NCBI RefSeq assembly: GCF_003334765.1
Contig: NZ_QOWT01000090.1
Reading direction: 5' to 3' (one strand)
DNA: 1,014 bases
From: Escherichia coli
GTDB lineage: Bacteria > Pseudomonadota > Gammaproteobacteria > Enterobacterales > Enterobacteriaceae
The position numbers were made by a program, and so were the translations under genes. The notes under the pieces were generated by a model. It was not told where the DNA came from. It worked only from the letters and a program-made list of their open reading frames with translations, and made no database searches. Shown in pieces: positions 1 to 1,014 of this stretch; the first letter of the stretch is position 1; every line of letters starts with the position of its first letter.

Positions 1-136
1 CAGCATCCTGCAGTGGCGCAATATACTCACTGAATTCCTGGATGTAGAACTGTGTGGTGACGGTCTTCCAGCCATTCGGCTCCTGCTGTATCGAAGCATA
101 CCAGGCTATTTCAATATCGCTATGCTGCGGCAGCAT
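1..136 (-). CDS. Partial CDS (start codon at 136-134, continues past window position 1): tail-fibre-assembly (Tfa)-like protein, N-terminal 45 codons
   Basis: Minus-strand translation from ATG (complement of 134-136) is MLPQHSDIEIAWYASIQQEPNGWKTVTTQFYIQEFSEYIAPLQDA, open to the window edge. An in-frame TAA (complement of 137-139) lies directly upstream, so the ORF cannot start earlier. A Shine-Dalgarno-like AAGGGG (complement of 141-146) sits 4 nt before the ATG. The segment EYIAPLQDA resembles the conserved ..EHIAPLQDA.. stretch of lambda-type Tfa proteins as I recall them. Unverified by search; only 45 codons are visible. Confidence 0.5.
   Translation of the reverse strand, partial: MLPQHSDIEIAWYASIQQEPNGWKTVTTQFYIQEFSEYIAPLQDA
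123..132. repeat. Left copy of 10-bp exact direct repeat TGCTGCGGCA, lying inside the first codons of the minus-strand Tfa-like gene
   Basis: Plus-strand 123-132 tgctgcggca is identical to 894-903. With one 3-nt indel (GCA unit) the match extends to 123-136 versus 894-904, which includes the start codon on the minus strand. Confidence 0.6.
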
Positions 137-192
137 TTAACCCCTTGTAATTCATCGCCATAATTGATTTAATTCACAAATAAAACTATAAC
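137..192. promoter_or_regulatory. AT-rich divergent intergenic region between the minus-strand Tfa-like gene and the plus-strand methyltransferase; candidate sigma70-type promoter for the methyltransferase
   Basis: 56 bp at about 27% GC (15/56, hand count) between two divergent start codons. Best plus-strand candidate: -35 TTGATT (164-169), 17-bp spacer, -10 TATAAC (187-192). A weaker alternative is -35 TTGTAA (145-150) with -10 TTTAAT (168-173). Hexamer matches in AT-rich DNA are weak evidence. Confidence 0.3.
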
Positions 193-861
193 ATGGTGAA
201 ATTAATGAAAAAAAACACAGATGATGGGGCTAAAATTTACACACCACTTACCCTAAAGCTTTATGACTGGTGGGTTTTGGGAGTATCAAATCGGCTTGCA
301 TGGGGATGTCCTACAAAGGAACACCTTCTTCCACACTTTCTGGAACATTTAGGTAACAACCATCTGGATATTGGTGTTGGAACTGGGTTTTACCTTACTC
401 ACGTACCTGAGAGTAGTCTGATATCTTTAATGGATTTGAACGAAGCTAGCCTGAACGCGGCATCTACAAGGGCTGGGGAATCAAAAATTAAACATAAAAT
501 TAGCCATGATGTTTTTGAACCTTATCCCGCGGCGTTACATGGTCAATTTGATTCCATTTCCATGTTTTACCTTCTTCACTGCCTGCCTGGAAATATATCT
601 ACAAAAAGCTGTGTAATACGCAATGCGGCGCAGGCCTTAACTGACGATGGAACTCTATACGGAGCCACAATTCTTGGCGATGGAGTTGTGCACAATAGCT
701 TCGGTCAAAAACTGATGCGCATTTACAATCAGAAAGGCATCTTTTCAAACACAAAAGATTCCGAAGAAGGCTTAACACATATACTCTCAGAGCATTTCGA
801 GAATGTTAAAACCAAGGTTCAAGGTACTGTAGTAATGTTTTCCGCTTCAGGGAAAAAATAG
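193..861 (+). CDS. Class I SAM-dependent methyltransferase (Rossmann fold), substrate unknown; alternative start at 205 gives 218 aa
   Basis: Single long ORF in the provided track (222 aa, stop TAG 859-861). Residue numbers count from Met at 193. Motif I LDIGVGTG at aa 58-65 (nt 364-387). Acidic post-I residue D81 in SLMDLNE. Motif II GQFDSISMFYLL at aa 117-128 (nt 541-576). Motif III-like LTDDGTLYGATIL at aa 149-161. N-terminal aromatic segment YDWWVLGVSNRLAW precedes motif I. No DPPY/NPPY or PC/ENV motifs. Confidence 0.85.
   Translation: MVKLMKKNTDDGAKIYTPLTLKLYDWWVLGVSNRLAWGCPTKEHLLPHFLEHLGNNHLDIGVGTGFYLTHVPESSLISLMDLNEASLNAASTRAGESKIKHKISHDVFEPYPAALHGQFDSISMFYLLHCLPGNISTKSCVIRNAAQALTDDGTLYGATILGDGVVHNSFGQKLMRIYNQKGIFSNTKDSEEGLTHILSEHFENVKTKVQGTVVMFSASGKK
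195..199 (+). promoter_or_regulatory. Shine-Dalgarno-like GGTGA serving the internal in-frame ATG at 205
   Basis: GGTGA matches the GGUGA portion of the extended anti-SD complement and lies 5 nt before ATG 205-207. No SD-like sequence precedes ATG 193-195 (upstream is caaataaaactataac). Confidence 0.35.
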
Positions 862-868
862 CATCCAA

Positions 869-901
869 CCGCAGCACGTTCTTGCTTAAGACGTGCTGCG
901 G
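869..901. terminator. Perfect 11-bp inverted repeat (stem 869-879 / 891-901, 11-nt loop 880-890) between convergent genes; candidate terminator, better oriented for the minus strand
   Basis: ccgcagcacgt (869-879) is the exact reverse complement of acgtgctgcgg (891-901), 8 of 11 pairs G:C. On the plus strand no T-tract follows (cataatccc). On the minus strand the stem is followed by ttggatgc then tattttt (complement of 853-868), a T-tract displaced by 8 nt. Non-canonical in both directions. Confidence 0.4.
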
Positions 902-903
902 CA
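894..903. repeat. Right copy of 10-bp exact direct repeat TGCTGCGGCA, overlapping the right arm of the hairpin and lying just beyond the stop of the minus-strand Tfa gene
   Basis: Plus-strand 894-903 tgctgcggca is identical to 123-132. On the minus strand it reads ATG CCG CAG CA (complement of 894-904), against ATG CTG CCG CAG CA at the left-hand gene start. Confidence 0.6.
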
Positions 904-915
904 TAATCCCAATGA

Positions 916-1014
916 TTACTCCCTGACAGGGTTCGTAGGCCACTCAATATCAGGTGCAGTTGATGTATCAACACGGTTCAGCAACACCCGATACTTTTTC
1001 CAGGCTTCCAGCAA
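916..1014 (-). CDS. Partial CDS (C-terminal 32 codons plus stop; N-terminus lies beyond window position 1014): tail fibre assembly protein (Tfa) family
   Basis: Minus-strand translation entering at 1014 is [32 protein letters not shown], ending at TAA (complement of 916-918). This closely matches the C-terminus of phage lambda-type Tfa proteins as I recall it (..[33 protein letters not shown]). Recalled from memory, not searched. Confidence 0.65.

Follow-up and report, generated by a model that had tools for sequence, protein, structure and literature searches.

A 10-nt direct repeat flanking the ybcY methyltransferase gene of an Escherichia coli lambdoid prophage is most probably a chance match between a hairpin arm and an S24-peptidase gene leader

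The stretch of Escherichia coli DNA analysed here (1,014 nt, hereafter the window) is most probably the right-arm end of a lambdoid, DLP12-type prophage, in which the two copies of a 10-nt sequence, TGCTGCGGCA, lying on either side of a methyltransferase gene are unrelated sequences that had no part in placing the cassette. The gene itself, ybcY, is a moron-type cargo unit of the DLP12-type locus and occupies the dinI slot adjoining the probable tfa terminator. The features of the window are as follows.

1-43, minus strand: second-tfa-derived part of tfaX (tfa codons 137 onward), running on to the left of the window
44-49, minus strand: fusion joint of leader and tfa fragment at chimeric-ORF codons 30-31, between the homology limits 43 and 50
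50-145, minus strand: leader and 5'-proximal region of a humD/umuD'-like S24-peptidase gene, by homology to Salmonella and E. coli loci
123-132: left copy of TGCTGCGGCA, in the palindrome 122-136
146-192, plus strand: upstream region specific to ybcY, where the cargo cassette begins on the left; has promoter-like elements
193-861, plus strand: ybcY, class I SAM-dependent methyltransferase ORF, stop TAG 859-861
862-868: spacer CATCCAA, the right end of the cassette swap, shared with ybcY-less phages
869-901: hairpin (perfect 11-bp stem, 11-nt loop), convergent between tfa and ybcY
894-903: right copy of TGCTGCGGCA, made up of the final 8 nt of the hairpin 3' arm and 2 nt more
905-1014, minus strand: 11-nt spacer (905-915) and intact tfa 3' end, stop 918-916, 32-residue translation

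The plus strand has exactly two copies of TGCTGCGGCA, at 123-132 and 894-903. Read on the minus strand, the left one falls within ATG CTG CCG CAG CAT, the opening codons of the ORF running from 136 to 1, and the right copy within ATG CCG CAG CA (904 to 894), separated from the tfa stop TAA (918-916) by the 11 nt at 915-905; in all of this the initial annotation was exactly right. Of dinucleotide shuffles of the same length and composition as the window, 43.5% contained an exact direct repeat of 10 nt or more somewhere along their length. Between the flanks 1-192 and 862-1014 an exact 10-mer was shared in 2.6% of shuffles, in agreement with the chance expectation of ~0.02 estimated earlier, and between the two intergenic stretches in 0.8%, both restrictions having been picked after the repeat was seen. 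At 0.8-2.6% of restricted shuffles, pure chance is not a comfortable explanation. Gapped local alignment of the junction regions on both strands revealed no homology past the 10 bp, with a score reached by 2.4% of shuffles. Each copy is embedded in a symmetrical sequence absent from the earlier reading, the left in a 15-nt palindrome (ATGCTGC-G-GCAGCAT, 122-136) and the right in a perfect 11-bp inverted repeat (869-879 and 891-901).

An exact 10-mer in each of the intergenic regions, identically oriented and with an ATG before each copy on the minus strand, together with its low flank-restricted chance (0.8-2.6%), had suggested that recombination at the short repeat brought in or exchanged the cassette, one copy being the original downstream gene start and the other regenerated. 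We consider this highly improbable, as the right copy is found as part of a hairpin in cassette-free phages, the left ATG did not originate as the start of Tfa, the breakpoints lie away from the repeats, at ~145/146 and 861/862, and the left alleles other than the major one do not match the right site.

The right copy is a conserved hairpin arm, not an insertion scar. The hairpin at 869-901 folds with a dG of -23 kcal/mol on the plus strand (z = -5.4) and -28.5 on the minus strand (z = -4.3), and over 11 variants 98.3% of the stem cells are paired, with one compensatory pair. The arrangement of tfa, 11 nt and hairpin, with other cargo beyond, recurs in lambda, PhiR49_2, SPF_0923 and JNQH497: PhiR49_2 is 100% identical to the window over 862-1014, hairpin included, without ybcY, and lambda and SPF_0923 carry the same hairpin with one compensatory change, reading TTTCTGCGGCA at the right site, also without ybcY. 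The hairpin thus already stands behind tfa in phages that have no cassette, which speaks against the right copy being a retained or regenerated gene start. In PhiR68_2, Turner and O157, ybcY is accompanied by the same hairpin with no adjoining tfa, and a T-run follows it (TTTTTC or TTTAATTTTT); the right site reads TGTCTGCGGTT in PhiR68_2 and O157, and TGTCTGCGGCA in the second hairpin of locus L018. The tfa gene of the window corresponds to RefSeq WP_000885574.1 (194 aa), which matches PHROG 105, tail fiber assembly, with E = 2e-100.

This hairpin is probably a bidirectional terminator common to tfa and ybcY. In the window its plus strand has no T-run, and a terminator scan gave no canonical terminator; the U-run on the minus strand is only loose (UUGGAUGCUAUUUUUU). 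In Rfam, the hairpin also matched the 3' hairpin of the sRNA CssrB, below threshold.

The cassette was originally placed at ~137-893, with the repeat copies at its edges. In loci where dinI takes the place of ybcY and the left flank is kept, homology to the window ends at ~145/146, and PhiR49_2, which has dinI cargo, matches the window from 862 (lambda, SPF_0923 and the second L018 hairpin from 867), so the limits are ~145/146 and 861/862, and each copy is set back from its joint into the flank, by 13-23 nt on the left and 33-42 nt on the right. PhiR49_2 was also considered as a single genome with both flanks and dinI, and was rejected: it lacks the left flank, and the dinI at its prophage end is of a different allele. 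Cassette-free phages retain the whole hairpin, and dinI-state loci retain the left site.

An insertion at the repeat had been expected to leave relatives with an empty site, in which the tfa TAA is followed after 11 nt by ATG(CTG)CCGCAGCATAGCGAT. We searched 5,426 E. coli genomes with a synthetic query joining 1-132 to 904-1014; there was no single-piece match among the best-ranked ones, all of which were two-piece. Three places of ~286 bp (H137, H139 and H148) were considered as empty sites and rejected, as they lie inside ybcY loci, at a tfaX with a normal tfa 3' end. The nearest case is phage Ayreon, which has an internal ybcY deletion that retains both sites. The window resembles target-site and microhomology duplications in having a short direct repeat either side of an inserted-looking gene, and differs from them in that its repeats lie off the breakpoints, both pre-exist in cassette-free relatives and not all carriers of the cassette have the repeat; nor was a single-copy empty site seen among the best-ranked matches. 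Of the proposed cassette, what stands is that the methyltransferase gene is swappable between conserved flanks; short-homology recombination at the 10-mer is not supported.

The left copy falls in 'tfaX', which is a chimera of the leader of an S24-peptidase gene and the 58 terminal codons of a second tfa, an origin that also explains the K-12 pseudogene of that name. A full Tfa has ~194 aa, and the homology of the left ORF to it starts only at the ORF's own codon 32 (window position 43 or below), which corresponds to tfa codon 137; in locus L018, the alignment of the tfaX and tfaD units (~90% DNA identity) likewise starts at window position 43, tfaD nt 408. Matches to Tfa by tblastn and PHROG cover only residues ~27-77 of the 89-aa form of the ORF, and these align to the C-terminal part of lambda Tfa. 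The product is thus not the full ~190-aa protein with N- and C-terminal TAP regions that defines Caudo_TAP (PF02413). Among full-length Tfa proteins, none carried AWYASIQQEPNGWK, the longer matches being read-through or fusion artefacts.

Upstream of the joint, the region 50-145 supplies codons 1-29 of tfaX, its ATG (136-134) and an SD-like AAGGGG, and is 86-96% identical to two Salmonella loci (L022 and L021) and two of E. coli (L023 and L024). There, its homologue lies between an S24-peptidase gene (Pfam PF00717, E = 3.7e-9; named 'HumD family translesion DNA polymerase' or 'S24 family peptidase' in the source records) and an SOS-box-like sequence with dinI. With homology to Tfa beginning only at codon 32 and 50-145 coming from this leader, the left ATG is not the ancestral Tfa start that it had been assumed to be. 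The second tfa retains its own stop, spacer and hairpin, which amounts to a tandem duplication, at ~90% identity, of the tfa 3' end with its hairpin.

In some genomes PGAP calls a dinI 5' fragment at 38-117; we rejected it, as the sequence has no similarity to real dinI alleles, and the call stems from a Salmonella deletion that joins the leader in frame to dinI (L021). In all, two database annotations are flagged as probably spurious. A recurrent breakpoint at 107/108 was rejected as well: the BH100 breakpoint really lies at ~113-116, from a deletion beginning in the ompT-downstream region, and SW071614 has a separate terminase-tfaX deletion at 107/108, so there is no hot spot.

We read ~30 loci among ~4,800 matching E. 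coli records, and only one of six left-site alleles, the major E. coli one, gives the 10-nt match; the five others, TGCCGTGGCA, CGTCGTGGCA and CGTTGTGGCA among them, share 5-6 nt. Loci at the smpB site combine left TGCCGTGGCA with right TGCTGCGGCA, the two sites match at 8 of 10 positions in BH100, Ayreon and L026-L029, and in PhiR68_2, Turner and O157, which have the cassette, the repeat is absent, the two sites sharing at most 6 nt. The major left allele differs from that of Ayreon and BH100 by three substitutions within 15 nt, in loci with 97-98% identity elsewhere; two of these account for the match to the hairpin arm, and together they also yield the perfect 15-nt palindrome.

Such a cluster could mean that the identity is secondary, TGCCGTGGCA having become TGCTGCGGCA in the major lineage either by gene conversion templated on the hairpin arm or because base pairing of the hairpin RNA with the tfaX start was selected for on a read-through late transcript. 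We judge this unlikely. The third substitution, at position 133, departs from the hairpin sequence, the left palindrome shows no stability signal as an RNA hairpin (z = +1.1), and carriers of the hairpin variant TGTCTGCGGTT retain the same left allele. In those lineages, moreover, divergence is greater throughout the tfaX region than in ybcY (83% protein identity for P0022), and clustered differences at the left site are therefore to be expected. The two match-creating substitutions of the three are what a short conversion patch would also be expected to give.

The preferred reading is that of unrelated sequences. In the window tfa is followed by the stable hairpin 11 nt past its stop, as in lambda and other phages, and ybcY, with its own AT-rich, putative promoter region, converges on that hairpin. 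In the main E. coli lineage the humD-like leader is cut short at 44-49 and joined to the 58 terminal codons of a second tfa. A plausible route has a donor with the order stf-tfa-hairpin-ybcY-humD-like gene and a recipient with stf-tfa-hairpin-dinI, recombining by a homologous crossover in the tail-fibre region and by an illegitimate one that attached the humD leader midway along the recipient tfa and so produced the chimeric 'tfaX'. The 10-mers would be a hairpin arm in one case and codons 2-5 of the humD leader in the other, identical by chance in one allele lineage. No single genome among the ~30 loci read has the proposed donor arrangement, an intact humD-like gene beside ybcY; Ayreon comes closest, with stops in its humD-like gene and ybcY deleted.

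The cargo gene corresponds to RefSeq WP_000239881.1, and its true start is likely the ATG at 205. Pfam methyltransferase families match the 218/222-aa product, and residues 5-222 align to profile positions 1-218 of 218 in PHROG 2132; NCBIfam gave no match for any of the three proteins of the window. A promoter-like site lies at 137-164, though the number of such sites is not above that in shuffles, and in K-12 the ybcY/tfaX spacer is reported as an RNA-polymerase-bound constitutive promoter region with H-NS (PMC3946193).

Morons are independent cargo transcription units, defined for HK97 gene 15 and reviewed by Cumby et al. 2012 (PMC3594210). Like those of lambdoid phages, the ybcY unit is a single gene with a putative promoter region, a probable hairpin terminator and a lower GC than its neighbours (0.28-0.36 in the 146-192 region, and 0.28-0.45 across 101-850 against ~0.50 in the tfa flanks), placed at the end of the late operon and oriented against late transcription. 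It also varies among related phages as morons do, being absent from lambda, PhiR49_2, SPF_0923 and JNQH497 despite the same tfa 3' end and hairpin. It departs from morons in that, in the window, no T-run follows the hairpin on the strand of ybcY and the hairpin is common to ybcY and the convergent tfa, and in that the cassette replaces other cargo, dinI, and is not a pure addition.

Related prophages have dinI, sitABCD or ea47 in place of the methyltransferase gene. The dinI/msgA-type gene, with its SOS-box-like sequence, occupies the ybcY position in other prophages, and the divergent pair of dinI and a humD(umuD')-like S24-peptidase gene, known from the tail-fibre end of enterobacterial prophages, provides a close parallel. 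The leader of that pair is window 50-145, and ybcY holds the position of dinI relative to both this leader and the tfa hairpin; the window differs in having the putative ybcY promoter and the gene in place of the SOS-box-like sequence and dinI, and in its S24-peptidase gene being down to 29 codons fused to a tfa fragment. These comparisons show that ybcY and dinI alternate as cargo in a single slot by the probable tfa terminator, and correct the limits of a very common unit, 3,790 of 5,426 complete E. coli genomes containing at least 80% of the window. The K-12 DLP12 segment tfaD'-ybcY-tfaX-appY-ompT, in which the same three features are annotated, is 99.1% identical over the window, but its ybcY is frameshifted and its tfaD 5'-truncated, whereas the window lineage, 100% identical to O121 RM8352, has both genes intact. 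In the phage collection ybcY appeared in only 15 E. coli phage records, at 99% identity or more, and a search for more distant contexts in phages and plasmids found only near-identical E. coli copies.

Several independent contexts show homology breaking off immediately to either side of the hairpin: ybcY, dinI, sitABCD or ea47 lie to its left (break at 862 or 867), and tfa, a pin-ynaE module or the chromosomal yciG side to its right (901/902). In PhiR68_2 and Turner, moreover, pin lies 1.1 kb from ybcY. That the hairpin and palindrome are recombinase sites, for instance of the Pin invertase or as an attC-like folded site, that move the cassette is nonetheless scarcely credible, given that the left boundary, at 145/146, lies away from the palindrome, that the 8-10 nt motif is the only repeat, inverted or direct, common to the cassette ends, that there is no recombinase gene near window-type loci, and that breaks beside terminators are the usual pattern of phage mosaicism.

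What we describe is ordinary phage mosaicism with a partial tfa duplication, and has little significance past tidy annotation. The hairpin region behind tfa (862-901) may conceivably, though doubtfully, serve as a boundary at which cargo is exchanged within ~40 bp of shared sequence; if so, the same hairpin element would close both the tfa module and the ybcY module, and the tfa-hairpin-ybcY joint of the window would have come from a crossover inside the hairpin. A more remote variant of such an exchange would have the left 10-mer allele patched from the hairpin.

E. coli O121 RM8352 (reverse strand, 605,697-606,710) matches the window at 100% identity, and the K-12 DLP12 locus tfaD'-ybcY-tfaX does so at 99.1%. 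Among 5,426 complete E. coli genomes, 3,790 contain at least 80% of the window, as do 14 phage records. Its genes are arranged as follows:

1014 to 916 (stop TAA 918-916), minus strand: 3' part of tfa (tfaD in K-12), an intact tail-fibre-assembly gene
193-861, plus strand: ybcY, a class I SAM-dependent methyltransferase gene
136 to 1, minus strand: first 45 codons of 'tfaX', in annotations a partial tail fibre assembly protein

Translation of ybcY probably begins later than annotated (ATG 193): the alternative ATG 205 has a good Shine-Dalgarno sequence (GGTGA at 196-200), the PHROG 2132 alignment begins at residue 5 and some gene calls give 218 aa. A RefSeq 45-aa 'hypothetical protein' (WP_001309429.1; 806-943, minus strand; labelled 'nucleocapsid protein' in K-12), whose ORF overlaps the ybcY 3' end, an entire hairpin and the tfa stop, in all likelihood does not represent a real protein.

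The initial annotation had described a 10-mer, TGCTGCGGCA, at 123-132 and 894-903, and had taken its copies for the joints of a ybcY cassette inserted or swapped by short-homology recombination. Both exact copies are present, with no third in the window, and their minus-strand readings and the 11-nt spacing past the tfa stop were correct. A dispersed repeat is excluded, as in ~150 kb of related loci the 10-mer occurs only at the two homologous positions and at one unrelated site (in loci L015 and L018), and gapped alignment on both strands found no similarity past the 10 bp. The chance estimate of 0.02 was right for the flank comparison chosen, since with the search confined to the two flanks 2.6% of shuffles gave such a repeat, but that comparison was picked after the repeat had been seen; confined to the two intergenic stretches, the value was 0.8%. 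Anywhere in such a window, exact direct repeats of 10 nt or longer are common (43.5% of dinucleotide shuffles).

Loci that carry dinI where ybcY sits and keep the left flank lose homology at 145/146, between ...CATCATTTAACCCCT and CTTGAACAC..., and phages lacking ybcY match from 862 (PhiR49_2) or 867 (lambda, SPF_0923). The ybcY-specific segment is therefore ~146-861, consisting of an AT-rich putative promoter region and the ybcY gene, with a GC content of 0.28-0.45 vs ~0.50 in the flanks. The 10-mers lie outside it, within the flanks, 13-23 nt and 33-42 nt away; since the true limits are 145/146 and 861/862, the proposed joints at the repeats had to be abandoned, and the inference of a recombination scar from the real repeat is not supported. 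What lies here, with its limits redrawn, is a prophage cargo unit that is ordinary and very widespread. Its deviating GC and putative promoter region are of the sort that define morons (PMC3594210); among constitutive promoter regions bound by RNA polymerase, Shimada et al. list one with H-NS in the K-12 ybcY/tfaX spacer (PMC3946193).

The right 10-mer comprises the final 8 nt of the 3' arm of a hairpin plus 2 nt. This hairpin, a perfect 11-bp inverted repeat (869-879/891-901) with an 11-nt loop, is very stable as RNA on the two strands (-23 and -28.5 kcal/mol; z-scores -5.4 and -4.3), and pairing held in 98.3% of the stem cells of 11 variants, vs 23-54% with a slid partner, with a single compensatory change (C:G to A:U, in lambda and SPF_0923). 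An equal element lies at equal distance behind tfa in phages without the methyltransferase, and so the right 10-mer was not made by cassette arrival; beyond the hairpin lie dinI in PhiR49_2 (100% identity over 862-1014), sitABCD in Salmonella phage SPF_0923 and E. coli JNQH497, and ea47 in lambda. In phages PhiR68_2 and Turner and in E. coli O157, the hairpin sits behind ybcY with no adjacent tfa and is followed by TTTTTC or TTTAATTTTT, which would make it a canonical ybcY terminator there. The hairpin thus ends both the tfa and the ybcY modules. Homology breaks right at its edges (left 862 or 867; right 901/902), and this clustering on its two sides allows the idea that the hairpin is an exchange point for cargo, which would go modestly beyond the phage mosaicism already known.

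Below threshold (36 bits, E = 1.7e-5; gathering score 76), Rfam matched positions 870-901 (minus strand) to the 3'-terminal hairpin of CssrB, a Shigella sRNA family, suggesting that an RNA 3' end was earlier detected at the hairpin on the tfa strand. Also, the last ~70 nt downstream of differing dinI alleles are conserved together with the hairpin loop (locus L024, 3440-3545; locus L026, reverse complement, 2910-3000), in L024 even with a different stem, which suggests that the dinI 3' flank and the hairpin move together as one unit.

The left copy had been regarded as an ancestral Tfa gene start; however, Tfa homology begins well inside the left ORF, and the 10-mer and ATG lie in the leader of an S24-peptidase gene. 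Tfa is 194 aa long, and the left ORF (whole in locus L018, 89 aa) resembles it only from residue ~27-32 on, a part that corresponds to the C-terminal portion of lambda Tfa. The DNA identity between tfaX and tfaD, ~90%, starts at window 43 on the tfaX side and at codon 137 on the tfaD side, and takes in the stop, the 11-nt spacer and a second hairpin copy. Positions 50-145, which hold the 10-mer and ATG, are 86-96% identical to Salmonella loci L021 and L022 and to 39 E. coli genomes (e.g. L023, L024), the matches lying upstream of a Peptidase_S24-domain gene (Pfam E = 3.7e-9) and in one case reading into it. This gene, for which the sources use the names 'HumD family translesion DNA polymerase' and 'S24 family peptidase', is oriented divergently to a dinI/msgA-type gene with an SOS-box-like sequence; since most of its homologues, at 129 aa, lack the leader, the leader's coding status is uncertain. 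Consequently, tfaX is a chimera of 29 leader codons, two junction codons (49-44) and 58 codons of a second tfa. No genuine full-length Tfa with the AWYASIQQEPNGWK stretch was found in a 5.8-billion-sequence protein collection.

In K-12, tfaX (1-136, minus strand, extending left of the window; L018 2521-2790) is called a 'pseudogene'; the 89-aa ORF is still intact in a lineage with only 83% protein identity (protein P0022), where it may be maintained or just young. Positions 38-117 (plus strand) are labelled 'DinI family protein, incomplete' by PGAP in some genomes, an assignment we rejected as the stretch has no similarity to real dinI; it also occurs at L017 1650-1729 and L021 2486-2776, and the label seems to spread from a Salmonella deletion joining the leader in frame to dinI. 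The two halves of the Rfam 'sRNA' model IS009 (RF02111) match tfa/tfaX coding fragments below threshold (959-1014, minus strand, model 144-199; 1-113, minus strand, model 1-108), and so this family may be nothing more than a piece of tfa.

Of six left-site alleles recovered, only the major E. coli allele, ATGCTGCGGCAGCAT, has 10 nt in common with the window hairpin. The following have no more than 5-6 nt in common with any variant of the hairpin, the background level:

TGCCGTGGCA: Ayreon and BH100; same motif in the smpB-site loci L026-L029
CGTCGTGGCA: L022, L023
CGTTGTGGCA: L024

In PhiR68_2, Turner and O157 the major left allele occurs together with another form of the hairpin, TGTCTGCGGTT, and these three hence have the cassette without the repeat. 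That a short conversion patch from the hairpin made the left copy match strikes us as very improbable; in its favour are the low flank-restricted chance value and the fact that two of the three substitutions between the major allele and that of Ayreon and BH100 are those creating the match.

An empty site had also been predicted. Against every complete E. coli genome, a synthetic join of 1-132 and 904-1014 gave no match in one piece among the best-ranked matches listed, and the three best-ranked ~286-bp matches opened all lay inside ybcY loci. Nearest to an empty site was phage Ayreon, with window ~166 joined to 826; it was rejected as an internal ybcY deletion that retains the promoter end, the last 36 nt and both motif sites. 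Three independent deletions end in or beside the cassette (L012 3107/3108; L004 ~2509-2516; L010 ~3001) and illustrate continuing decay of the locus:

window 107/108: terminase fused to tfaX
window ~113-116: ompT-downstream region fused
window ~166 to 826: internal to ybcY

Within the ybcY 3' end, AAAACCAAGGTT (808-819) matches the core of the crossover sites of Hin/Gin/Pin type (hixL); PhiR68_2 and Turner have a gene for the invertase Pin ~1.1 kb from ybcY, the Ayreon deletion ends at 826, and the conjunction may be coincidence.

The locus most likely arose from a donor phage of the order stf-tfa-hairpin-ybcY-humD-like gene and a recipient of the order stf-tfa-hairpin-dinI. One crossover would have been homologous, within the tail-fibre genes, and the other illegitimate, connecting the humD leader (near window 50) with the recipient tfa at codon ~137. 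The product would be dinI->hairpin'<-tfaX / ybcY->hairpin<-tfa, an order seen at the smpB, dusA and yciE sites. Later events would include deletion of the tfaX 3' end beside a hydrolase or appY, placement of a pin-ynaE module right of the hairpin, the K-12 ybcY frameshift, and the BH100, SW071614 and Ayreon deletions. One E. coli assembly (L028 897-2944) has the ybcY-tfaX-dinI unit adjoining P2-type tail genes (gpU, X, D) and not lambdoid stf-tfa, and so either the unit moved between phage types or two prophages fused.
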